A stretch of DNA of 64,000 nt from a virus. The position numbers and the translations under genes are program-made. The DNA lies in IMG/VR virus record IMGVR_UViG_3300046660_000367, positions 1 to 64,000 of that record. One strand, given 5' to 3'. Below, one piece after another: positions 5,069-23,000 of the stretch. The notes under the pieces are model-generated. The model was not told the origin of the DNA. It saw nothing but the letters and a program-made list of their open reading frames with translations, and searched no databases. The stretch's first letter is position 1, and each line of letters opens with the position of its first letter.

Positions 5069-8000
5069 ATGCCAAAGAACACTGACCTGGGCGACTTCGC
5101 CAGCATTGTGCCGGGCGCTGAACCGGACCTCGGCGAATTCGCCACGATCGTGCCGAAGAACCGGCCGTCCATCATCGGTTCGAGCATCGCAGACCTGGGC
5201 CGCTCGCTGAAAACCGGCGTCGAGCAGTTGCCCGGCATGGTCACCGGCCTGGCCGACATCGTGCCGGCGCTCGCCACCGGCACCCGGCCGTTTACCACGG
5301 CAGCCGACTGGCTCGGCGAGCAGACCGGCTTCCAGCCCGGAAAATGGGCCAAGGAGCAGCAGTTTTCCCCCGCTTACAGGCAGAACCAGCAAGAGATTCA
5401 GGATGCGTGGAAGGGTGTCAACGCGGTCTCCGACGACCCGCACGCGAGCAACGCGGACTACCTGCGCAAGCTGGCCGCCGACGCGCCTGGCATCGCCGCC
5501 GAATATGTGAAGCACCCGATGTATTCGCTCAACCAGGTGACCGAATCGCTGCCGTCGATGATCGCCGGCGGCGCCATCGGGCGCGCTGGGGTGGTCGCCG
5601 GGCGCGCGCTGCCGGTCGCGGCCGACGCGGCACTGGGGACGGCCGCCAAAGCTGCGGTGCCGGGCTATCTGGAACGCGCAGTCGGTAACAAGGTCGCCAG
5701 CGAGATCGCCGGCGGTGTCGGTGAAGGCACGGTGCAGGCCGGACAGGCCATGGACCAGTCGGAAGGCAGCGACCAGCGCAAGAATGCGATTGCGGCGCTC
5801 GGCTCGGGTGCGCTTGATGCGCTCATTGCTGGCGGCGCCGGGCATGTGGCGCACAAGCTCGGCTGGGAAACGGCCAATACCGCGATGGCGCAGGGATTCG
5901 ATCACAAGCTCGCCAGCGGCCTGTCGGCGGCCAAGCGCATCGCCGGCGGCGCCGCCTCGGAAGGACTGCTGCAGGAGGTGCCGCAGTCGATGCAGGAACA
6001 GGCCTGGCAGAACTACGCGGACGGCAAGCCGTTGATGCAGGGCGTGGTCCAGCAGGGCGTCGAAGGCGGGATTGCCGGCGCCGTGATGGGCGCCGGCGCC
6101 AACTTGCGCGGCGGCGAGGCGCCGCCACCACCCGGCGGCAGCACGGCCACGCCGCCGGCCAACAATCCGCCCGGTGGCAGCCAGGGCACCCCGCCAGCGA
6201 CCCCGCCCGGCCCGCTGACGCAAGCGGCCAGCCTGGTCCCCGGCGCGCGCCAGCAGTTCCCGTTCGGCTCCATTGACCTCGCGCAGAAGCAGGCCAACAG
6301 CTTCACCAGCGATTTCGGCATCCCGCATCAGGCGGTGCCGCACCCGAGCGTGCCGGGCAAGTTCGCCGCCGTGCCGGTGACCGTAGACGGCGCTGACGCC
6401 CTGTTCGTCAAGGAAGCCGAGCGGCAGGGGGTCGATCCGGCCGCCGCGCAGCTGGCCACCCATGGCGATGGTGGCGCCAGCCTGATGACCGACCTGCTGG
6501 CCCAGCACCCGGAGCTGACGGCGCAGCAGTGGAGCGACCCGGCCACGCGCGCGCAACTGGCCGCCGCCTACCTCAAACAAGACATCGACGCGCTGGGCGA
6601 GGCGCTGGGGCGTGCACCGACCCCGGCCGAAACCTACATCGGCCGCCAGCTCGGCACCACCACGGCAGCCGAACTGCTGAACGTGCCAGCGTCCGAGCGC
6701 GGCATGCCGGTCTCGTCCATCATCAGCGACCCCGCCGTCGAAGACCGCCTTGGCCTGACCGGCATGCCGGTCGGCTTTGTCATCGACCACTTGACGCAGC
6801 AGGCCGACACCACGCTGGCCACCTTGAAGGGGAACGGCAATGCCAACCTGGGAACCGAAGTACCTGCCGCTGGAGGCGCCACTACTGGATATGATGGTGG
6901 CGCAGCTGTGGGTGACGCAGCAGGAAGTGGAACTGTGGCTGGACGACCTGCTGCCGGAACCGGCGCTGTCGCAGCTGGAACACCGGCTGCACCTGGCGCG
7001 GCTGAAACTGGACCTGACGGTGCCGGTGCAGTAGCGCCGCGCGTGCAAGTCGGCCCGACCGAGGACGGCTTCCAGAATGGCAACGCCCAGCGCCACCGCG
7101 ACACCGCCGACGCGCTGGGCCTGACCGACACCATCGAGCGCCTGTTCGGCGACGGCCTGACGGTCAACCAGGTGGTCGGCCAGATTCAGGACAAGGCGCC
7201 CGGCGTGGTGCCGGCCGACCTGCCGAACCTGGTCAACGGCGTGCGCGGCACGCTCGGCATCCCGGCGCCGATCTCGCCCGAGGGCAAGGGCGCGTTTGAC
7301 GCCTGGCGCGCAGAGTACAAGGCGCGCGGGCAGCAGACCAAACAGCAGGCGGCACAGCAGCAGGACGACCTGTTCCCTGACGTGCCGGACTTCCCGGCCA
7401 CGCCGACCCCGACAGGCACCACCACGTCCGCAGAATCGGCAGCAGCCGATACCCCTGCAACCCCTGATACCCAAGCGCTGCCGGCCTGGCACGATTCGCC
7501 GTTCGCCCCGCGCATCCACGCCATGCTGGATAGCCTGAAAGAAGCCGGCGACACCGATATGGCGCGCTCGATCGAGGCCGGCGTCGAGATGGACGCCAAG
7601 CAGGGCCGCTTGAACGAACAGAACACCGCCTACCGCGAGGAAAAGGCGCGCATCGCCGTCAACACCAAGGCCGGCGAGGGCAAGCCGCCGGTGCCGGTCG
7701 CCATCGCGCCGGAAACCTACGACAGCCTGGCCGGGAAGATCAACACGATTCCCGCCTTGCCACGCGCCATCGGCGAGGCCGCGGTCGCGCGCTGGAACGA
7801 GATCGCGCCCAAGCTGGCCGCGCTCGGCTTCAAGGATGGCGAGGTCGATGCGCGCCACGCGCCCGAGGCACGCGAGCTGCAAAAGCAGCTCAAGGACATC
7901 AGCAGCGCCTTGAATGGCCTGGCGCCGCGCCGCTATCAGGTTGAGCGCGAACACAAGAACGTCAACCCGGATGCCATCGAGCGCGAGGAAAACTTCGCCA

Positions 8001-11000
8001 CCACCGTCCTTGGCATCGATACGCGCGCCCATCCAGGCGTCAATACTGACCACCGCATCACCCTCGGCCAGGGGGTGCAGACACCGACAGGCACCACTAC
8101 GCCCGCGAAAGAGCAAATCGACCTGTCGGACCTGATCGCGCAGTCCACGGCTGCCGGCACCAATGACGCCGGCGAGGCGCTGTTTGAGAACCAGCGCGGG
8201 ACCTTCCGCGTGCGTAAGGACCGCAAGGACCAGCCTGACGGCTACGCCGACTTCGGCGGCGACCTCGCTCCCACCGCCGCAGCACCGGCAGATGCGCGGC
8301 TGGAGTATGCGCGCACTGCCCTGCACGCGCACCTCGGCGCGGCTGGCGAGCTGTACCAGCTCGATGGTGTGCAGCATACCAAAGCGCGCCAGGATGTCAT
8401 GAGTGCGCTGATGGGCACGCCGGTAGAGAAGAAAGAGGCCAGCGTGGACGCGCTGCGCGCGGAACTGTATCGCCGCATCGGTATTGTCAAGGGCAACGCG
8501 CTGGCGAAAGAAATGGTGTTCCAGCAGTGGTACAAGGATGGCGGGCTGGTCAATGTGCCGCAGCAGGGCGGCCACAGCGAGCAGTACGACAACTACCGCA
8601 AGGCCATCGAGGCGGGCCAGGCCAGCCAGGGCATGGCCGAGCAGATCGCCGCCGATGAACGCCTGAATGACGGCGAGGACGGCGAGCTGCAGGACTTGAT
8701 CGAGGCACACGCCAAAGGTAAATCTGACGCCGCGCACGCCGCTGTCGTCAGTGATAACGGGCTGGGCAAACCGGCCAAGATCGATCATGCCCGCTTGACC
8801 TTTGCTGGTGCCAGTTCTGGCTTCACCGTCAGCGATGACCTCAAAGCGCGTGTGCAGCAAGCGTTGCGCGAGCGCCCTGACGCATACAAGACTGGCTTTT
8901 ACAGCCAGAACAATACCCGCTTGAAATTGCCGGCGACTAAACACACTACCAATGAAACGGGCGGTCAGTTCCAGGTGAAGGATGACGGCAGCGTGATGCT
9001 GTTGGGGGATGACGGCTACGGCTGGTATTCCACCATGAGTCAGAAGACCGTCACGCGCACCTTGACCGACTGGCTCAAGAATATGGGTGCGGAGTCGGGC
9101 AAACTCGACAACGGCACCGCGCCGGAACACGCCCGCAACGAGGGCAAGCCGCTTGACCCTAACAACAAGTTCGTGCCGTCTGACAACGGCCCGGTCAATG
9201 AGCTGGCGCCGGTCGATGCAGGCCTGGTGCCGCTGGACATGAGCGTGGACGAGTTTGCCTCGATCACCAACGAGTTCGCCGCGCTGTTCGCTGCGCCGGA
9301 CACCTACGTGCAAACCGAGAAGCGGGTTGACCCCGCCACGGTGCTGCATGCCCCCGAGCCGACACCAGCCGGCGAAGGCAAGTGGACCATGGCGCCGTCC
9401 AAGGCGACCCTGGCCGCGCTCAAGGAGGTCGAGAACGCCCCGGCGCAGCCGCTCATCACCATGGTGGAAGACACCGATGCGCGCAGCACCAAGGAGGGCA
9501 AGCGCCACTTCCGCATCACCGCCAACTACACCAACCGCTATGACGCCGCGCCGATGACTCAGGGCGCCGTGATGGTCGGCGAGCAAGGTGAGGACAATGT
9601 TTCGCGTGACTCGGGCCGGGTCGGCACCAAGCAGGGGCTGGCGGGCGGGGTTGCCGAAATGAAGGCGATGTGGCTGGAGCTGGAATCGGCCATCCTGGAC
9701 CAGGACAAGTGGATCGACCACGCCACCGAGCAGGCCGAAAACAGCAAACTCCGCCAGCAAAACAACCAGAAGATCATCCTGTCGCTGTTCGACTACACCG
9801 GCGAGTGGGGCCAGCCGTGGGCTGACGCCGGCTACAACGTCATTCCCATCGACATTCAGAACGGCATCGACGTGCACGACCTGAACGCCGAGTACCTGTA
9901 CGATGAAATGGGCGTCGAGGGCGACATTCACGGCATGCTCATTGCCGTCCCCTGCACCGACTTCGCGGTGGCCGGCGCCAAGCATTTCGCCGCCAAGGAC
10001 GCCGACGGCCGCACCGAGTCGAGCAAGGAACTGGTCAAGGCGTCCTTGTCGCTGGTCGAGGAATTGCGGCCGAAATTTTGGGCGCTGGAAAACCCGGTCA
10101 GCCGCATCGAAAGCCTGACCGGCCTGCCACCGGCGCGCATGAGTTTTAACCCAAACCACTTCGGCCATGCGTATACCAAGAAGACCATGCTGTGGGGGAA
10201 TTTCCAGACCGATCTGCCGCTCTCGCCGGTCGATCCGGTCCTGGGTAGCAAAATGCACCAGAAGTTCGGCGGCAGCAGCCAGGAAACCAAGAACGCCCGT
10301 TCGGAAACCCCGCGTGGTTTCGCCGCGGCCTTCTTCATGGCCAACAACTACGCCGACCTGACGCCCGAGCAGCGCCTGACCGGCGACTACCCGGAAGCGT
10401 CGGGCGCGATCGCCACCGCCTTGAAAGCCGGCGTACCAGAAGACCGCGTGCGCGAGCTGATGGAGCAGACTTACGAAAACTACGACTCCGAAGCGGCCCG
10501 CAACGCCCTGATCAAGGAAGTGGCCGCGCTGAAAGAGGGCACCGGCGACTATGCCGCTGACGAGGATGCGGACGAGGACGGGCCGAGCGCGCTATCGGCC
10601 AGTGTGCCGGGCACGGTCGATGCCCCGCTCAAGTTCCACAGCGGCATGAGCCGCCCCGGCGACTTCAGCAAGCTGTTTGCCGGGCACCGCAATGTCGGAA
10701 TCGAGGTCGGCGAGCTGTCGAAGGTGTCGGTCCCGAAGATCGCCGCCGCGATGGCCAACACCAATAGCCACCTGTTCGTCGATACCGGCGCCTTCCCGAT
10801 CTACCAGAGCAACAAGCTGGCGTTCCTCGATGCGCTGAAAAAGCAGGACTTCTCCGACTGGAAGAACGAGGAAATGCTGTCGTTTGACCAGATTCTGGAG
10901 CGCTACAAGTCGATCCAGGACGCGATCAACGAGGCCGACGACAGCGGGTTCGCCATCGAGCGCGCCTATTTCGTCATGCCTGACGTGGTCGGCCGCCAGG

Positions 11001-14000
11001 CTGAATCGCTGGCCCTGGTGGGCCAGTACCAGGGCGCCATCAACGGTTTCGGCGACCGCGCGATCCTGCCGCTGCAAGCGGGTGAGCTGACGCTGACCCA
11101 GGCCTACGAGAGCGCAATGATCTCGCTGCGGAAGGACCCGGACCATGATTTCGGCCCGATCGTCGGTATCCCGAGCAACAAGGAGGCCGCGCCCAACGAC
11201 CAGCTGACCGACCTGCTGAAAAAACACGGCGACCGCATCGCCGGTGTGCACGTCCTCGGCCTGTTCGCCGACACGATGCTGGCGCCGCGGCTGGACGCGA
11301 TCCGCGCCGCCGGCTTTGAGGGCCATGTCAGCGCCGACGCCAACCGGCTGCGCTCGCTGATGTACGGCACACGCACGCGCGGCGATGCCATGGATATACT
11401 GCTGGGCCAGTCGGCGCCGGAAAGCGGGGCCAAGAACGGCGGTGCCCCGGCGCCAGCCGACACCAAGCCTGGCCTGAAAAAGATGCAGGACGCCAAGGCC
11501 GAGAAGGACGCGGCCAAGGATGCGCCTGCCGAGGCGGGCCAGCACAGCGGCACCGTCGGCATCGACACGCTAATCGAGCGCGCCGAAGCACGCCTGGCGG
11601 AACAACGCGCGCTGCAAAACGCTGCCGTCGAAGACGGCAATGGCAACGAATGGGTGTACGACAAGAAAATTGCCGCCATCGAGGCCCAACTGGCCGATTA
11701 CCAGCGCGCACGCGCCGAGCTGCTGGCCGAAGACAAGCCGGGCCTGAAAAAGATGCAGGAGGCGAAGGCCGCCAAGGATGCCGCGACACTGCCCGAGACG
11801 GCTGCCGGGCAACAAGGTTATCGTTCGGCGCTGGACGGCTATCGCATGTCCCCACCGAACAACATCAGGACCAACATCGACAAGGCCGAATGGGAAAAGG
11901 GCTGGCTGGCTGGGGAAGCGCGCCGCGATGCCCTCATGGAAGGGGCGGAACCTGTCGTCGTGGGAGGGCGCCTTGCCTCGCCGACCTTGAATTTGCAGCA
12001 TGAACTGGTGTGGCGCGACGAGCGTAGCGGTAAGGATTATGTGTCAATGGATGCGGCCAGGGACGGACTGACCGCCGCCGATAAGCAAGATAAGGATTTT
12101 GAGGCAGCATTGCCAGCCAGCGAAGTCGTCGCCGTGTATCACACCAAAGGCGGCAAGCTGGCGATGCAGATCAAGCGCAGCATGGGCCGCGATGGCCAGC
12201 CGCGCTATGCCTACACCGGGCAATACGGCGCTGGCAGCGGCCATGGCGAAGCGGACATGCGCACCTTCGTCCGGCAGGCCAAGGCGGCGCATCCGGGCAT
12301 GAAACTGGTGTCGGGGCAGGAGTTTGGAGAGGCCGCGGTGCCGGCCGCCATTGACCTTGATGCGCTGCTGGACGACCAACTGAAAGCCGCCCTGTCGGAC
12401 CTGGGCGACGTGCTGGGCGATGTGTTCGGCGGCGTCAAGAAGATGACCGGGCCGCAGCGCACCGCTGGCGATCTGCTGCCGGCGCTGTCAAAGGTGGTCG
12501 AGCTACTGATTCGCAAGGGTCTGCGCTCGTTCCAGCAGGCCATCGGCACGGCCGCGCGCGCCATGCGCGGCAACGACAAGACCGCGCCGTTCGTGGACCA
12601 GATCACCCCGCGCCAGTGGAAGGCGGCCTATAACGCCGTGGCCGAATTGCATGAAGGCACCGACAGCGAGGACAGCGTCAACGCCCTCAGCGCCGACGAG
12701 GTGACGGCATTGACCGGCGTGGCGCCAGCTGCCTCGGCCGAGCGCAACGAACCAGCTGCGCCACCGGCCTCCCGCCGCAAAGCACCGGGACAGGCACGCC
12801 TGCGCCAAGACTATGGTGTCAAGCACATCGACGGCTACACCGCGACCGACGAATTCCCGCACGGCCCGCCGGGCGACATTCCGAGCGGCGGCGTCAAGGA
12901 AGCCTTCCGCAAGGACGCGATGGCGTACCTGAAGGACATCGCTGGCGTCCTGCTCGACCATGGCTTTACCAACTTCACCAACAGCAGCGGCAAGGCCATG
13001 AAGGCCTATTCGTGGAACCCAGGCGGCCCGGCCGTGGCGGGCGACGCCATGCTGTCAATGGTGCACGAAGGCGCCGGCAAGGGCATTTATGTCAACATTG
13101 CCGGCGACAGCATGGTCGGCAAGCCGACGGCGTCGGGCGTGAGCGTGATGATGCGCGTCACGACCAAAGAGAATCCGACCAGCAGCGGCATGAACCTGTG
13201 GCCGGGAGCCGATCTAAGCGGGCAGGAGCTGGCCGACAAGATCATCAAACTGGTCACTGGCGCACCTGCGCGCACCGAAAAGGGTGATAATCAAGACAAC
13301 GCGAAGGACGACAATGGAACTCGACCTGAAATTTCTAACCTGGGTACGCCGGGAATCGGCGAAGCTGGCGGAGAAGTGGCCGCTGGGGGGCGAGCGGGAA
13401 CGCGACCTGCTGGCCCATTGGGCGAGAAACCGGCCGCAGATGATGGCGCGGCTGGAGGCAATGAAGGTGGCGCCGCAGCTGGCCCACGTCCTGCTGGACC
13501 GGGAGTATCAGGCATTCCAGCAGAACCTGCGGGCGGGAATGGGGCCGACGGACGCAACGGAACAGGCGGAACAGGACTGGCTGATGCTGGAACCGGAGTC
13601 GGAGGACCAGCCGTTGGACCTGCCCGAGCCAATTACCACATCGGAGACCCCGAGCAGCTGATCGGCGGCACCCCGAAGGTCCGTTTCGCCAAGAACCGCG
13701 CCGCCATCGAGGCCTACCGCTCGATCACCGAGGAAGGGCGCGCGCCGGTCAAGGAAGACCTTGACGCGATGGCCGCCTACATCGGCTGGGGATCGTTCGG
13801 CCAGGAACTGTTCAAGGGAACCTGGGAGCGTGCGGCGCCGAAAGAGGGCTGGGCCAGCGAAGACGCCTGGCTGCGTGGCCACCTCGGGCAGCAGGAATGG
13901 GAAAGCGCCCAGCGCTCGATCATCAACGCCCACTACACCGACCCCGTCACCGTCAAGACCATGTGGGACATGGTGCGCGCGCTCGGCTTCACTGGCGGGC

Positions 14001-17000
14001 GCGTGCTGGAGCCGTCGATGGGGATTGGCAATTTCTTCGCCATGATGCCGCTCGACCTGGCCGAAAAGAGCGAGCTGACCGGCATCGAAATGGATACCCT
14101 GTCGGGCGGCATGGCCAAGGAGCTGTACCCGAACGCGAATATCCAGATAAAACCTTATCAGGATAGCAAGACGGTCGATGGCTTCTACGATCTGGTGATC
14201 GGCAACTGGCCGTTCGCCAAGGACGGCCCGAGCGACCGTCGCTACATGAAGCTCAATCCGTCCCTGCACGACTTCTTTTTCCTCAAGGCGCTTGACCAGA
14301 CCCGCGCCGGCGGGCTGGTGGTGGGCATCACCAGCGCCGGCACGATGGACAAGAAGGGCCGCGCCACGCGCATGGAAATTGCCAAGAAGGCCGAATTGGT
14401 GGCCGCCTTCCGCCTGCCCGCCGGGGCCTTCGAGAAGTATGCCGGCACCTTTGTGACGACCGACCTGATCGTGCTGCGCAAGCGCGCCGAGCCGGTCGCC
14501 GGCAGCGCATCATGGGTCGAGCTGGGCGAAACCCGCGTCCCGGCCGGCGAAACCATCGAAGTCAACAGCTATTTCCTGCAACACCCCGATCACGTCCTCG
14601 GCACCCTCAATTTTGGCCGTGGCCTGAACGGGCGCCCGGCAATGCTGGTCGAGCGCCCGGCCGACCTGATGGCGCGGCTGGCACAATTGCCCGGCAAGAT
14701 GCCGCCCGACACCTACTCGCCTGCGCAAGGGCGCAAGCAGGTCAGCTACCTGACCAACAACACCGCCGACCGCGAGGGCAGCGTGACACTGGCCGACGGC
14801 AAGCTGTACGTGGTGCGCGGCGAGCGGCTGATGCCGCTGGCCGACGTGACCAGCTACCAGGTCAAGAGCAAGATCGAGACCGCCGCGCGCGAGGCGCAGA
14901 TCGGCAAGCTGATCGCCATGCGCAATGCGTATGGCGCGCTGGTGACGGCCGAGCGCGCCGCCGACAGCAACACCGAGGCGCTGCGCAAGGACCTGCACCG
15001 CCAATACCTGGCGTTCGTCAAAGCCTACGGTTCGTTGGAAGCGTCCGACGGCATGCGCATCCTGCGCAACGTGAAAGACCCGTTCTACTCCGCGCTGGCG
15101 TCGCTGGAAATCGACGGCAAGCCGGCGCGCATCCTGAAAGAGGCGACGCTGCGCGGGCGCAAGAAGCTGGCCAACCCGAGCGTGCGTGACGCCTTCGTGA
15201 TGGCGCGCAACGAAAGCATGGACGTTGACCTGAGCACCATTGCCAAACTATCCAACAAGACCGAAGCGGAAGTGGCGAGCGAGCTGGAAGGGGCCGATGC
15301 GATCTTCAAGACCCCGGCCGGCAACTATGAAGTGGCCGATATCTACCTGTCGGGCAACGTGCGGCGCAAACTGCGCGAAGCGCAGGATGCACAGGCCAAC
15401 GCGCCGGCCGGCCAGGTCAGCGCCGATTTCGCGCGCAACATCGCCGCGCTGGAAAAGGTGCTGCCCAAGACCGTGCCGTACTTCAAGATCGAGGCCAAGC
15501 TGGGTGCGCCGTGGATCAAGGCCGAGCATTACCAGGGCTATGTCGCCCGCCTGCTGGGCCTCACGCGCGACGAGGACAAGGCGGCCGTCGAAGTGCGCAT
15601 GGTCAACGGCTCGTGGAAGGTCAAGTTTACCGACCACAGCCTGAACAACCGGCCGGAAGCGACGACGCAGTGGGGCACCTTCCACATGGCGGCGCGGCTC
15701 GACCGGATGCTGACGGCGGCGATGAACAACCGCAGCATCACCGTCAAGTACAAGGACGACGACGGCAACATGCAGGTGGACGAGGCGGCCACCAAGGAAG
15801 TGAGCGAAAAGCTGGTCAAGCTGCGCGAGGAATTCGGCAATTGGGTGTGGAAGGACGCCGAGCGCCGCGTCTGGCTCGAAGAAAACTACAACGAGGTGAT
15901 GAACGCCATCGCCACGCCCAACTTTGACGGCTCCTTCCTCGACTTCAACGGCATGACCCTGCGCCGGGGCGATGACCCGTTCTCGCTGCGCCAGCACCAG
16001 GTCGATGCCATCTGGCGCGGGCTGGTCAACGGCCGCGGCCTGTACGCCCACGAAGTCGGCACCGGCAAAACCTACACGATGGCCGGCCTGGCGGTCGAGT
16101 CGCGCCGCTACGGGCTGGCGAAAAAGCCGCTGATCTTCGCCCACAACGCCAACAGCGCGTCGGTGGCCAAGGAATTCAACGACATGTACCCGGCAGCGCG
16201 GGTGCTGTACCTCGACAACCTGGCGCCGGCCGACCTCGACGTGCGCATGCGCCAGATCGCCAACGACGATTGGGACGCGGTAGTGGTGCCCCATTCGCTC
16301 ATCAGCCGCTTCGCGCTGACTGCACAGACGCTCAATGAACTGGCCGCCGAAGACATCGCGGCGATGGAGCAGGAGGCGATGGACGCCGCCGAAGACGACA
16401 ACGTCCACTTGACGCTGGCGATGATGGACGACGAAAAGGAGATGAAGAAGGTGCGCAGCGCCACCGCCAAGGACCTGGTCAGGGCGCGCAACAAGATCAT
16501 CAAGAGCATGCAGGACATGGCTCTCAAGTCGTCGAAAGAAGACGCGGTGTCGTTCGAGGACCTGGGCGTGGACATGGTGATCGTGGACGAGGCCCACGAA
16601 TTCAAGAAGCCCCCGGTCGCCACCAAGATGAAGATGCGCGGCCTGAACACCGGCACCTCGAACATGTCGATCGCGCTGCGCTTCCTGACCGATTACGTCA
16701 AGCGCGAGAACAACGGGCGCGGCATCCACCTGTTTACCGGCACGCCGATCACCAATACCCTCACCGAGTTGTACAACATGATGCGCTACGTCATGGATGA
16801 CGTGATGGCGCGCGACGGCATCAAGGACTGGGACAGCTGGTTCAACACCTTCGCCGACTCGACCACCGACGTGGAACTGACGGCGGCCGGTGAGTACGAG
16901 GCGGTCACGCGCCTGGCCAGCTTCGTCAACACGGCCGAACTGCGCCGCATTTCCGGCGAGTTCATGGATATTGTCTTCGCCGACGACATGCCCGAATTCA

Positions 17001-20000
17001 AGCCGCGCCAGACCGCATCGGGCAAGATTTTGACCGACGAGCTGACCGACGTCGAGCGCGAGGAACTGCTGAACGGACGCAGCGAAAACCCGGTCGGCCG
17101 GCCCTACAAGCAAATCATCGTCGATGTGGCGCCGATGGGGCTTGAACAGAAGCAAATGCTGGACAACTTCAAGCGGCTGGCCAAGGAATTCAAGGAGGCC
17201 AGCAAGCAGCGGCGCCGCGAAATCGTGCAGAGCGGCCACCCGGCGAACCCGGTTCTGGTCGAAACCGGCGCGGCCAACGCCGGCATGGACCCGCGCCTGG
17301 TGGATATGAACGCCAAGGACGAGCCAAACAGCAAGGTCAACCGCGTTGCCCGCAATGTCGCCGCGCTGTACCACGAAGACGCGCGTGCCACCCAGGTGGT
17401 GTTCCTCGAACGTGGCTTTACCGACGAAGGCACCAAGACCAAGAGCAACGGCGACGGCACCAAGACCGTTACCAAGGTGCGCAAATTCAACCTGGTCAAG
17501 GACATGGTGGCCAAGATGGTCGCCGCCGGGGTCAAGGAAAGCGAAATCGCCGTGGTTGACGGCTCGGTCAGCAAGGAAAAGCGCAAGGAGATTGCTGACG
17601 CGATGAACAAGTCGCAAATCCGCGTCGTCATCGGTCTGACCAAGACGCTCGGGGTGGGCGTGAACATGCAGGAAAACCTGCGCGCGATGCACCACGTCGA
17701 TGCGCCGTGGATGCCGGGCGAGCTGGAACAGCGCAACGGGCGCGGCTGGCGTCAGGGCAACAAGTGGAACACCGTGCGTGAGTACCGCTACATCACCGAG
17801 CGGCTTGACGGGCGGCGCTGGCAGGTTCTGGCCGTGAAGGACCGTTTCATCAAGCTGTTCCTCAAGGCCGATGAAAACACCCGCATCATCGACGGTGATG
17901 CGGTCGAAATGGAAGAAGGCGATGGCGGCGATCTGGCCGCGACGCTGTCCGAGGCGGCGGGCGACCCGCGCGTGCTGGTGCGCGAAAAGCTCAAGGCCGA
18001 TATCGAGAAGCTGGAAAACCGCGAACGCCAGCATACCTATGCGCTCACTGACGCCGCCGAAATGATGCGCCGCCTGGCGCAGGCAAATGCGGGAATGACG
18101 GAGACGCTGCCGAAGTTGCAAGCCGACTCGGCGCAGTACGAGGCCGGTCGCGGCAACTTCAGCGCGACCATCGGGGGCGAGCAGTACACCGAGCGCGGCG
18201 CTGCCGATGAGGCGATTGACGCCATTATTGAGGGGCTGGACAAGAACGTGGGGCAGCGTCAGATCGGCACCATGCACGGCTTCAAGCTGACGCTCCATCG
18301 CGGCATTGGTGGCTTCTACGTCGATATCCGTGGCCAGCATCAATTTGAGGCATGGACGCCCAGCGTGTCGTCGATCGAGTCGGCGATGCGCAAGCTGGCC
18401 AAGACGGCTGCCGAGTATCAGCAGAAGATCGAAGACAACAAGGCCAGTATCGGGCGCATGGCCGAAATGCAGAAGGAACCGTTCGGGCAGGCGGCGCTGC
18501 TGGAGAAGAAGCGCAAGATGCTGGCCGACCTGATTGCCGACCTGGCGCGCAACCCGGAGCCGGCCCCGGCCTGGCTGCGCCATGGTGCGCCGGCCAATAC
18601 CGCGATCTACGTCAATGGCCAGCAGCGCGTGGTGGAAGGGCACAAGAGCGACAAGGACGGGTATTTCATCGTCACCGAAGAAGGCGACGTGCCTTACCTC
18701 GATGCCACCGACGCGGCTGGCATGCCGATCTATGATCCGGTCGATGGCGATGTGCGCGACGAACGGCCGCCGCTCGATCTGACCGGCACGCCGGCCGAGC
18801 CGGCACGCCTGCAACGGCGCGAAGACGACCGCAAACGGCGCGAAAGCGACCCGCTATTTGCGCGTGCCGAAAATGACGAAGCGGGGGCCGTCGCGCAGAA
18901 CGGCAAAACGCCGATCATCAGCGACACCGATTTCGCCGCCGTCATCGACCGCGTCAAGGCCGCCTTCGCCAAGCGCGCCGGTGGCGCCCTCACCGTCAGC
19001 ATCAAGCCAGTGCGGGGGATGGACGACCTGCCGCCGGCCTTGCAAGAGGCAGCGCGCCGCCAGCAGCTTGACCTTGGCAAAGGCGTGTATTTTGAGAACA
19101 CCGTATATGTGGTGCAGCAGGCCCATAGCACGGCCGAGGAAGTGGAAAAGACGATATTCCATGAATTATACGGCCATGCCGCCACCGCCACCCTGTTTGG
19201 CGACGAGTGGGTGGCCAAGCAGAATGCACTATTGAAAGCCATCGGCGGCGGCGCGGGCCTGTACCGGATCGCAGCCGCCAACCAGATCAACCTGCACGCC
19301 TACGCCGATGGCCTGGCAGCCGACACCACCCTGACCGACGCGCAGCGCAGCGCATCCATGATGGACGAGTTGCTGGCGCACATGGCCGGGAAGAAGACTG
19401 TGCTGCGCCAGAAGATCAACGAGTTCATCGGTGCGGTGCGCGCCTGGCTGCGCGCGCACGGTTTCGCCAAGCTGGCCGAGTACGGCAACACCGACCTGGC
19501 GCACCTGCTGGCGGAGGGGCGCCGGAGCCTGGCCGCGAAAGCCACCGGCAAGGCTGGCCCGGCGATGCCGGTGTTCGCCCGCGACCCCGACCATGCGCCG
19601 GTGTTCTACTCGACGCTGACGCGCCAGATCGACAAGACGGTGACGAAATCGGCCTCGCCGCTGCACTGGGCCGAGACCATCATGGGCACCTCGTTTGCGC
19701 AGCAAGGCGTCAAGCAGGATGAAATCCAGTGGTCCGGCGTGCTGGACTGGCTGGCGATGCAGCAAGAGGCCGGCGTGAAAAAGGTGGACAAGGCGCAGCT
19801 GCTCGACTACCTGGCCGAGAACGGCGTGCGCGTAAGCGAAACCATGCAGGGCGAACCGGCGCCGGCCAGCGAGGAAGGTTTGGCACAGCGCAAGGCCGTG
19901 TTCGACCAGTACCAGCCGCAGATCGACGCGCTGCGCCAGCGCGCCGAGGACTACAAGTCGCCCAGCCGGGAAATGGATGAGGCGCGCGACGAGTGGGCGG

Positions 20001-23000
20001 AATTGATTGACGAGCGCGACCGCGCCGCGAACGACGCCTACACCTTGCCGGCCGACGATACTTCGCCTGGCCAGTACGGTCAATACCAGCTGCCCGGTGG
20101 CGAAAACTACCGCGAGCTGCTGCTGACGCTGCCGCAGAAGGAGATCAGCACCGCCGACTTCCTGACCACGGACGCCAAAGGCGAGCCGTTTGGCGTGCAC
20201 GCAACCGAGGCGGAGGCGCGCAACGCGGCCCGTACCATTGGCGGCACCTACGAGGCTGGCGAGTCCATTTCGCGGGAGGCGGTCAAGTTCCAGTCGGCGC
20301 ACTGGACGGGGGTAGGCAACGTCCTCGCCCATGTGCGCTTCAACGACCGCATTGACGCCGATGGCCAGCGCGTGCTGTTCATCGAGGAGCTGCAGTCCGA
20401 TTGGCAAGCCGCCGGCAAGAGGCAGGGCTTTGGCGTGGCCGATGTGGAGAAGGAACGTGATCGCCTGCACGCGGCCGGCGATCCAGCCTGGGCGACAGTG
20501 TCCATCAGTAACGCCAGCAAGATCGCCCCGGCCCCGTTCGTCGGCAAGACCGAGGCCTGGCTGTCGCTCGCGGTCAAACGCATGATCTCCTACGCCGCGC
20601 AGAACGGCTACGACAAGGTGGCGTTCGTCAATGGCAAGCAGTCGGTGGAGCGCTACGACCTCTCCAAACAAGTTGCGCAGATTCGCTATGTCAAGCGCGC
20701 GGACGGCACGTATGACGTGTGGGCCGCCGACGAAAGCGGCCGCTCGCTGAACGACACCGTTGACAAGCAAGGACTGAAGCCTGAACAGGTCGAGGAATTC
20801 GTCGGCAAGGAAGTGGCCGAGAAGATCATCAACGGTGAGGGCCACAACGAGGATGGCGACATGGTGCTATCCGGCCTCGACCTGAAAGTCGGTGGCGAAG
20901 GCATGAAGACGTTCTACGACCGGATCGTGCCGAACGTGGTCAATGACGTGCTGAAAAAACTTGGCGGCGGCAAGCTGGGCACTGTCAACGTTGGCATCAA
21001 GGACGAGTCGCCCATCCCCCACTGGAAGACGAAGCAACCGGGCTTCGACCATTCGCGCATGATGATGCAGCCGCAGCCAGGCTTCGCCATCAGTGACGCC
21101 CTACGCGAGAAGGCGCAAGGCGGCTTGCCGCTGTTCAAGCGCGGAGAACAGCGTGCGCCGAACGGCAAAGCGTCGAACCTGCCCGCGCACCTGTGGCAGA
21201 AGGTGCGCACGCCGGAATTCAAGGCGTGGTTCGGCGACTGGGAAAAGGAGCCAGGCAAGGCATCGCAGGTGGTGGACGAGAACGGCGAGCCGCGCGTGGT
21301 CTATCACGGCACCAACGCCGACTTCACCGAGTTCGACAAGGCGAAAGTGCGCCTGCAAAGCCTGGGCGGCTTCTGGTTCGCCGAGCGCAACAACTATGTC
21401 GGCAACCTTCGGAGCGACCGGGAAGGCTTCAACCAGATGCCGGTGTTCCTGAATATCCGCCGCCCTGTTGACGGCAGCCGCTACGCGATGTTCCGCAACG
21501 GCGCCACCAGTAACGAGCAAGTGCAGCGGCAGTTCAAAATGAGCGGCAAGGACGGCGTACGCCTTGACAATGGCAGCGATTCGGTCTGGATCGCGCTGCA
21601 CCCCGAACAGATCAAGTCGGCCATCGGCAACAACGGCCAGTTCAACCAGGGCAACCCGAATATCCTGTTCTCGCGCAGCCCGGCCGATATCTCGCGCCAG
21701 GTTGGATCGACCATCAAGGCGCTGACTCTCACCCGCATCAAGAATAAGCTGATCGACTACGGGCGGATAGCATTGCAGTTCCTCGGCCGCCAGCAGCTGG
21801 TCGAAGTGTACGGCAACCTGTTCCCGCAAGGGACCAAGGACAGCCTGATGGTGCAGTACAACAAGCTGGCCATGCAGATGGACGCCGACAAGAACGACAC
21901 CAGCGCGCAGGCCGACACCATCGCCACCGATTGGGGCAAGCTGAAGGACCACCAGGCGCTGGCCGAACTGATGCACGACGCGACCCGCTTGCAGATCGAC
22001 CCGCGCAAGAAGTACGACCTGGGCGACATCAGGACCAACTACACCGATCTGCGCGCCCGCTACGAGGCGCTGTCGCCGGGTGCCAAGGCGATCTTCAACG
22101 AGGCGTCGGCAGCCTACGAGAAGCACTACGCCGCAGTGCGGGCGGCGGTGCACGACCGCATCGGCCGCGCCATGGTCGGCAACCCGAACCGCGCTTCGAT
22201 GCTGGCGCGCATGGATGCCGAGTTCTTCGGCAAGATCAAGGGCATCTACTTCCCGCTGGCGCGCTTCGGCGACTACATGGTGCAGGTGAACTGGCGCGGC
22301 GCCAATCCGAACCCAGCCATGGGACAGGCGCGCGAGGCGATCCACTTCGCCGAAACCATGAGCGAGGCGCAGGCCCTGCGCACCGAGCTGATGAAGGAAT
22401 ACCCGCCGGAAAAGGGCTATCAGGTGGCGCAGGTGACCCTGCGCGCCGAGTACAACGCGGCGCGCGATTCGGTTGGGCGCGGCTTCCTGCAGCAAATGTT
22501 CAACATGTTCAAGACAACCGGCATGGACCCATCCTTGCAGGATGCCATCAACCAGCTGTATCTGACCTCGCTGCCGGACCTGTCCTGGGCCAAGCATGGC
22601 ATCCACCGCAAGGGCACGCCCGGCTTCTCGCAGGATGCGCGCCGCGCCTTCGCCAACCACATGTTCCACGGTGCGCGCTACCTGGCCAAGCTGAACTATG
22701 CCGACCAGCTGGCGCAGGCGCTCGACGACATGCAGCATTACGTCAACGCGCACAACCAGGACGCCGGATACGATGCGGTCAAGGCGCAGCAGGTGGTTGA
22801 CGAAATGATCAAGCGGCACGACATTTACATGAACCCGAAGAACAATAAGCTGTCGAACTTGCTGACCTCGACCGGCTACGTGTTCTACCTGGGCCTGTCG
22901 CCGGCCTCGGCGGCGGTCAACCTGACGCAGACGGCGCTGGTGGCCTACCCGATCCTGGGCGGGCGCTACGGCTTCGGCAAGGCCGCCTCGGCGCTGCTGG

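Follow-up and report, generated by a model that had tools for sequence, protein, structure and literature searches.

The first 64,000 nucleotides of the IMG/VR virus record IMGVR_UViG_3300046660_000367 (the window; the complete record is 98,275 bp long and has direct terminal repeats) contain a giant gene of 6419 codons in one uninterrupted open reading frame (ORF; 5069..24328, plus strand), and the question it raises is whether a low-complexity stretch just ahead of its methyltransferase-helicase module is read in one frame only, as a linker, or in a second frame as well, as a small protein of its own. An earlier note on this DNA, made from the letters alone, had claimed the latter: a TnpV-like gene for 115 amino acids, overprinted within the giant gene, missed by standard annotation, and encoding a dedicated partner of the DarB-like module that follows. 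We found that the overprinted gene directly ahead of this module is real, and that about 40 independent loci, with G+C contents from 0.42 to 0.69, share its layout.

The nested reading frame, its conservation and its host gene

The nested gene lies on the plus strand at 13314..13661, in the +1 frame of the giant ORF, with its ATG at 13314 and its TGA at 13659-13661, and a Shine-Dalgarno-like AAGGA (13303..13307, same strand) can be read directly 6 nt 5' of the ATG. The whole of this coding sequence (CDS) is contained in the giant CDS, on the same strand and in a different frame, which is what defines an embedded gene, and the terminal TGA falls in CTG ATC, the codons for the L-I of an LIGG motif in the methyltransferase (MTase) module. 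Over 13313..13630 the giant frame, likewise on the plus strand, is a low-complexity linker in which G, A and P make up 62% of the residues, and the +1 frame reads as an ordinary protein of 115 residues with the motif HW..RPQM..L ... AEQDWLMLEPE; on each of these points our reading agrees with the earlier note.

The two frames can be told apart by composition. Across the whole giant ORF the G+C contents of the first, second and third codon positions (GC1/2/3) are 0.66/0.45/0.84, and over 13310-13650 the values for the same frame become 0.82-0.88/0.74-0.78/0.35-0.45. Given that the pattern of the giant frame flips here and that a shift by one base restores the pattern typical of the genome, the coding signature sits in the nested frame. 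The flip, which bears out a frame-specific test that the earlier note had suggested, coincides exactly with the nested ORF and recurs at the homologous spot in every relative with high GC3.

Homologues of the nested protein that are 39-84% identical to it are listed by gene callers as separate proteins of about 115 residues, and when 1.84 billion representatives were searched with a profile, 289 of these cluster representatives matched at E<=1e-3, the best 150 of which are all 61-275 residues long, with no giant protein that carries the domain in frame. DNA loci coding for relatives were drawn from genomes, viral contigs and metagenomes, one spurious match (locus L009) being discarded. The small gene was nested and free of stops in the same relative frame inside a larger ORF in eight of the nine loci from genomes and viruses and in about 30 of the 38 from metagenomes, within host ORFs of up to 6237 residues. 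Wherever an NYHI motif is recognisable the nested homologue sits directly 5' of it, and NYHI..P..LIGG follows the nested gene in 20 loci. Carriers include a contig of Acinetobacter brisouii (L002, 42% G+C), a metagenome-assembled genome of the Burkholderiaceae, and the Pseudomonas phages vB_PaeM_USP_18 and USP_25, in which the homologue lies within a 4899-residue 'hypothetical protein' that is the sole CDS annotated there. Indeed, every GenBank record that we inspected gives the giant CDS only, as the earlier note had expected of standard annotation. A pair of compensating assembly frameshifts, which that note had named as a possible source of the pattern, is excluded because independent assemblies of very different composition share the layout.

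If the small protein is made separately, signals for its initiation should be recognisable, and we therefore examined the start, choosing the start codon purely by its distance from an invariant Trp and seeking a tetramer resembling a Shine-Dalgarno (SD) sequence 3-12 nt upstream. Such a motif was present at the nested start in 26 of 36 distinct loci, compared with 14.5% of the ATG codons inside giant ORFs (binomial P ~9e-15), and an ATG with an SD motif was found in all nine cultured-phage ORFs checked. The embedded gene has, in other words, initiation signals of its own.

The selection acting on the two frames was then compared. Over 76 gap-free codons the nested frame had a mean amino-acid identity of 0.49; that of the giant frame, 0.32, was no better than in the third frame. 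For the two closest pairs of loci the ratio of nonsynonymous to synonymous differences per site (pN/pS) came to 0.30 and 0.39 for the nested reading, as against 1.82 and 1.69 for the giant one, so that the per-frame analysis suggested in the earlier note places the constraint in the +1 frame. For the giant frame we calculated the exact probability of its being free of stops given the nested protein and local codon usage. The value was 0.27 in the window, <1e-4 in the A. brisouii contig, 1e-4 in L006, 0.007 in L007 and 0.03-0.07 in three other loci, with a joint chance over ten loci of ~1e-19; in two distant carriers, Klebsiella phage SopranoGao and Vibrio phage VvAW1, it was 0.002 and <1e-4, respectively. 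These low probabilities indicate that the giant frame is actively kept open. The nested frame is under purifying selection and the giant-frame linker is constrained only to avoid stops, so that both frames are held by selection, the nested one as judged by pN/pS and the host one by stop avoidance in loci with low GC3.

Taken together, the signatures in the DNA make it very probable that this is a dual-coding gene from which the small protein is independently translated.

The second half of the host gene matches the Pfam families LPD39, ART-PolyVal, SNF2-rel_dom, Helicase_C and ResIII, and no Pfam family was matched in the first 3300 residues. The start of a DarB-like N6-adenine MTase module comes right after the linker (13631..15550, plus strand; NYHIGDPEQLIGG...), with an NWPF motif read at 14198-14227 and an SNF2 helicase following from about 15986. 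The MTase part is 30-49% identical to proteins in 89 phage records, many of them annotated 'DarB-like antirestriction', and alignment A4 of this module has a mean column identity of 68%. The Pfam domains, the DarB-like similarity and the origin in a phage record lead us to regard the host gene as encoding a polyvalent, DarB-like giant phage protein, and it has all the components by which such proteins are recognised, namely an N6-MTase, an SNF2 helicase and polyvalent domains. The giant protein of a relative, JC1 gp69, is virion-associated as judged by mass spectrometry (51 peptides; PMC9144972). The gene preceding the giant ORF has transglycosylase and baseplate-hub matches.

Other features of the giant protein were noted in passing. 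By reading alone, the segment at 9776-9976 (ILSLFDYTGEW ... PCTDFAVAG) resembles motifs I and IV of C5-cytosine DNA methyltransferases, which, if correct, would place a second methyltransferase upstream of the DarB-like one, and an HExxH motif (IFHELYGH) lies at 19154-19177. A second linker with a flipped G+C pattern occurs at 6794-7123 (giant-frame GC3 0.32) and contains a protein-like +1 ORF of 64 residues (6840-7034). No homologue of this ORF was found in a search of 5.8 billion proteins, nor in loci L001-L010, which include the closest relative (L003), and it is probably a chance or lineage-specific frame. In L006 a second linker with flipped GC3, some 500 nt 5' of the nested gene, contains a +1 ORF of 58 residues that reads like a coiled coil (9206-9382). 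In other GC3-flip segments of relatives' giant ORFs the +1 frame is mostly K/R/P-rich junk, or the segment is simply the upstream gene.

Fold and family of the small protein

The nested protein is acidic (isoelectric point 4.7) and has the invariant core W..RP.M..L ... AGM.PTDA.EQAE..LMLEPE. An AlphaFold2 model built with the family alignment predicts five helices followed by a disordered acidic tail, with a mean predicted local distance difference test score (pLDDT) of 76.6 that rises to about 90 over residues 10-80. Foldseek searches of the PDB and BFVD gave nothing at E<=0.001 (BFVD was topped by the unnamed entry Q8W6J4_2, with a probability of 0.94 and a TMq of 0.51), VIA-align in its wide setting gave a generic helical match as its best (Z 5.2), and PDB sequence profiles gave nothing below E 0.17. 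Searches of Pfam and PHROGs with the window protein gave nothing useful.

The earlier note had named TnpV as the family that the small protein resembles. A direct match was not obtained: Pfam TnpV (PF14198) was not matched at E<=10 by the window protein, nor by sets of 15 and of 69 relatives, and the gathering cut-off of 27 bits is not reached by the window protein; the TnpV model found nothing in the window's genome nor in G001, a carrier of the gene, and nothing above cut-off in 401 Pseudomonadota genomes or in control genomes.

On the other hand, a connection came from a sister group, which came to light when we examined the DNA ahead of more distantly related DarB-like modules of cultured phages. 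Nested +1 ORFs of this group occur in Klebsiella phage SopranoGao, Pseudomonas phage Itty13, Ochrobactrum phage POI1126 and Erwinia phage Pavtok, and further carriers are Vibrio phage VvAW1, Microcystis phage Mwe-JY07, Sinorhizobium phage PBC5 and Agrobacterium phage Atu_ph08. Klebsiella phage LASTA is another cultured phage with the nested gene. A hidden Markov model made from the Klebsiella, Pseudomonas and Ochrobactrum ORFs recovers the nested ORF in the Erwinia, Vibrio, Microcystis, Sinorhizobium and Agrobacterium phages, and the same three ORFs align with the window family at an hhalign probability of 94.8% (E 5e-8, 69 columns). TnpV is the sole recurrent Pfam family in this group, matched by seven of nine aligned members at E 0.0035 or weaker and at 15.7-17.7 bits, below the cut-off; one Atlas cluster with 13% TnpV scores 0.80. 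Because the window family is homologous to a sister group that matches TnpV below the cut-off, a remote kinship of the window family to TnpV is plausible, and to this extent the earlier suggestion survives. TnpV has no established function, a role in excision having been postulated from its resemblance to lambda Xis (PMC3158075).

Two of these phage records deserve comment for their annotation. In Pseudomonas phage Itty13 (L055, MW460249.1 2530-9461) the deposited CDSs of the DarB region are on the strand opposite to the tblastn match, and the strand of the match is open over 6.9 kb; the giant gene is probably annotated on the wrong strand. In Sinorhizobium phage PBC5 (L059, NC_003324.1 22169-27133) the DarB-like gene is deposited as two CDSs with an unannotated gap at locus positions 980-2610; the main frame is open from position 403 to the end of the locus, with the nested homologue ahead of the point at which the MTase begins.

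Possible role and alternative accounts

The position of the small gene makes it natural to ask whether its product serves the module beside which it is encoded, and the earlier note had proposed a dedicated partner in the form of an inhibitor, chaperone or packaging adaptor. When the small protein was co-folded with the N-terminal 640 residues of the MTase module, the score was 0.42, compared with 0.02 for the best of three controls, the runs agreeing in at least 34% of contacts with a partner pLDDT of at least 68. Of 80 solved complexes 58 reached the mark, as did 2 of 110 mismatched pairs; passes at 0.60 or under comprised only 7 of the 80 and both of the mismatches. The present score falls in the class of 'weak support'. 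The model is consistent with the small protein being a separate partner that would bind the N-terminal MTase part of the DarB-like module, perhaps as a chaperone for its assembly or packaging, or by holding back its activity in the producing cell. Of the roles considered for the small protein we put this forward as the likeliest, though tentatively and at somewhat short of an even chance.

A number of observations count against a separately translated protein that acts with the DarB-like module. A recognisable SD sequence is missing at the position-picked start in 10 of the 36 loci, and pN/pS in overlapping frames is biased and, for distant pairs, saturated (the nested median is 0.71). None of the matches in the Foldseek, VIA-align or PDB profile searches is informative for function. 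A co-folding pass of the weak class is, by the tool's own account, wrong in the majority of cases if the pairing was not already probable, and, since the overlap locks the small gene in position beside the MTase module, its conserved adjacency is no independent evidence of a functional link. Finally, the Lessievirus phages and Pseudomonas phage 8P carry +1 ORFs at the same spot without demonstrable homology to the nested gene. These ORFs, of 90-112 residues and with a strong SD sequence, precede the MTase module in the Burkholderia phages BcepIL02 (L057 2190-2513) and JC1 (L065 1130-1468) and in 8P (L064 1142-1414), and align with the window family at hhalign probabilities below 2%; either they are relatives that have diverged very far or they arose as overprints independently. 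A +1 ORF of this kind is absent before the module of one fecal phage contig.

Of the alternatives, the one that survives best accepts independent translation and gives the small protein a job unrelated to the DarB-like module, for example as a regulator or an anti-defence factor in its own right, its position being a frozen accident of gene fusion. An overlapped gene cannot move, and adjacency is for that reason as compatible with this account as with a partnership. Intact or partial copies also occur away from a functional giant gene and beside unrelated genes (an intact copy in L021, one after HsdR in L045 and one beside IS1 in L037), and TnpV, the nearest Pfam family, consists of stand-alone small transposon proteins to which no function has been established (PMC3158075). 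However, the great majority of copies lie within DarB-like giant genes, a plasmid collection contained none, several of the detached copies look truncated or lie in decayed stumps of giant genes, and the co-folding score of the MTase pair, set against its controls, lends weak support to a partnership. On this evidence we consider an unrelated role rather unlikely.

Far less probable is that the +1 segment is no separate gene and belongs to a longer product made by programmed frameshifting, either into the +1 frame and back again or with an ATG-initiated small domain joined to the MTase-helicase part through a -1 shift. Frameshifting is common in phages, both frames are open on the same strand, and the nested stop of five of the ten loci falls among the first few MTase codons. 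But none of the ten nested ORFs contains a slippery heptamer of the form X XXY YYZ, a stop in the +1 frame lies only 12-24 nt before the ATG in L002, L005 and L006, and in five loci the nested ORF ends well short of the MTase motif, at distances that vary. The ATG and its SD sequence are conserved, and among the best 150 of the 289 profile matches the domain is not in frame in any large protein. We regard frameshifting as very unlikely.

Termination-reinitiation into the MTase module was also entertained and dropped, there being no canonical start near the nested stop, the position of which varies among loci.

Least credible of all is that the open +1 frame is a by-product from which no small protein is made, whether through compensating assembly frameshifts or through chance openness in GC-rich DNA, for although alternative frames are often open in DNA of 64% G+C, and at about 20% of positions in the giant ORF a 115-codon stretch of the analogous -1 frame is open, the layout occurs in about 40 independent assemblies that include finished genomes of cultured phages and loci of 42-50% G+C, conservation of the +1 protein extends to relatives of 19-40% identity and includes invariant residues, and the coding G+C signature, the purifying selection and the conserved start signals are all in the +1 frame.

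A broader proposal may be built on separate translation of the small protein. In a large group of phages of Pseudomonadota and cyanobacteria, DarB-type antirestriction would then depend on the nested protein as a subunit or regulator made by its own translation, and the overprinting would record a general way in which giant polyvalent proteins are built, neighbouring genes being fused through a resident small gene, read in another frame, whose DNA becomes the linker while the gene itself survives. In this general form we think the proposal unlikely.

Origin of the overlap and known systems

Which of the two readings came first can be addressed with criteria for the ancestral frame in overlapping pairs that have been reviewed (PMC8227390; PMC3494269). 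Given that the nested frame has genome-typical composition, a predicted ordered fold and purifying selection, and that the host frame is of low complexity and unconstrained, we infer that the small gene is the older reading and that the giant-frame linker is the overprint.

Copies of the small gene persist in loci that have no giant gene or retain only a stump of it. An intact copy in L021 (2047-2424) has host-frame stops on both sides; in L039 (987-1343) and L048 (1416-1826) the copy lies inside stumps of 245-337 residues that end just after an NFHIDDP motif, and L040 was grouped with L039 among the loci with an intact small gene and a giant gene that is lost or a stump. Truncated fragments follow a type I HsdR gene in L045 (3510-3863) and lie beside an IS1 transposase in L037 (879-1148). 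The flanks of the standalone loci share no homology with the window's giant protein.

A sequence of events that would account for the arrangement starts from a stand-alone small gene, possibly for a remotely TnpV-like protein of a mobile element, in front of a DarB-like gene. Upstream modules would have been fused to the MTase-helicase module by readthrough of the small gene in its -1 frame. On the long late mRNA, internal initiation would yield the small protein separately, and ribosomes already in the giant frame would read the same DNA as a flexible spacer.

The consequences reach beyond the window. Many cultured Klebsiella, Pseudomonas, Erwinia, Burkholderia and Vibrio phages that are studied for therapy and antirestriction devote about one fifth of their genome to a DarB-like giant gene, and a knockout, truncation or recoding of the 'linker' would also affect a second protein, so that a component of an antirestriction system may have been overlooked. 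Because cultured phages carry the nested gene, the arrangement is directly testable. It also offers a clear evolutionary case in which the embedded reading would be the older one and the overprinting reading a disordered linker derived from gene fusion.

Embedded genes on the same strand are classical in phages, the best known being Rz1 inside Rz of lambda, with further examples in the Lessievirus phages (PMC5295617; PMC9144972). As in Rz/Rz1, the entire small gene described here lies within a larger gene, on the same strand and in the +1 frame, with its own start signals, and both readings are conserved in related phages. Here, however, the host gene measures about 19 kb and reads over the overlap as a low-complexity linker free of sequence constraint, and the small gene is seemingly the older; and whereas both products of Rz/Rz1 are structured and form a known complex, contact between the products of the nested/giant pair is a prediction.

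The nested proteins share with TnpV a size of about 110 residues and an all-helical build, and a motif of the sister group, W/H..hP..y..L...G.L, aligns to positions 22-84 of the TnpV profile at E 0.0035-0.015. The TnpV genes of Tn4451-type transposons, in contrast, stand alone and are not overprinted.

With the polyvalent proteins surveyed by Iyer et al. (2017; PMC5512222) the host gene shares the hallmark LPD39 and ART-PolyVal domains and the combination of MTase and SNF2. That survey deals with domain fusions only, and its text contains no overlapping genes, frameshifts or linkers; similarly, the JC1 paper annotates the embedded Rz1 and nothing inside the DarB-like gene (PMC9144972).

A functional parallel is DarB of phage P1, likewise a virion-carried antirestriction module of N6-methyltransferase and helicase, which needs small accessory proteins coded nearby (Ulx, DdrA, Hdf and DarA). 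A relationship of the nested protein to Ulx or DdrA was ruled out by hhalign probabilities of 0.7% and 0.2%, respectively. The two systems differ in layout, in that darB of P1 is a stand-alone gene of 2255 codons with no nested ORF, and ulx lies downstream of it. Phage P1 does, however, have an annotated gene, iddB, inside ddrB and on the opposite strand (L049, NC_005856.1 26577-26975), and it therefore provides a precedent for genes hidden within the genes of a Dar system.

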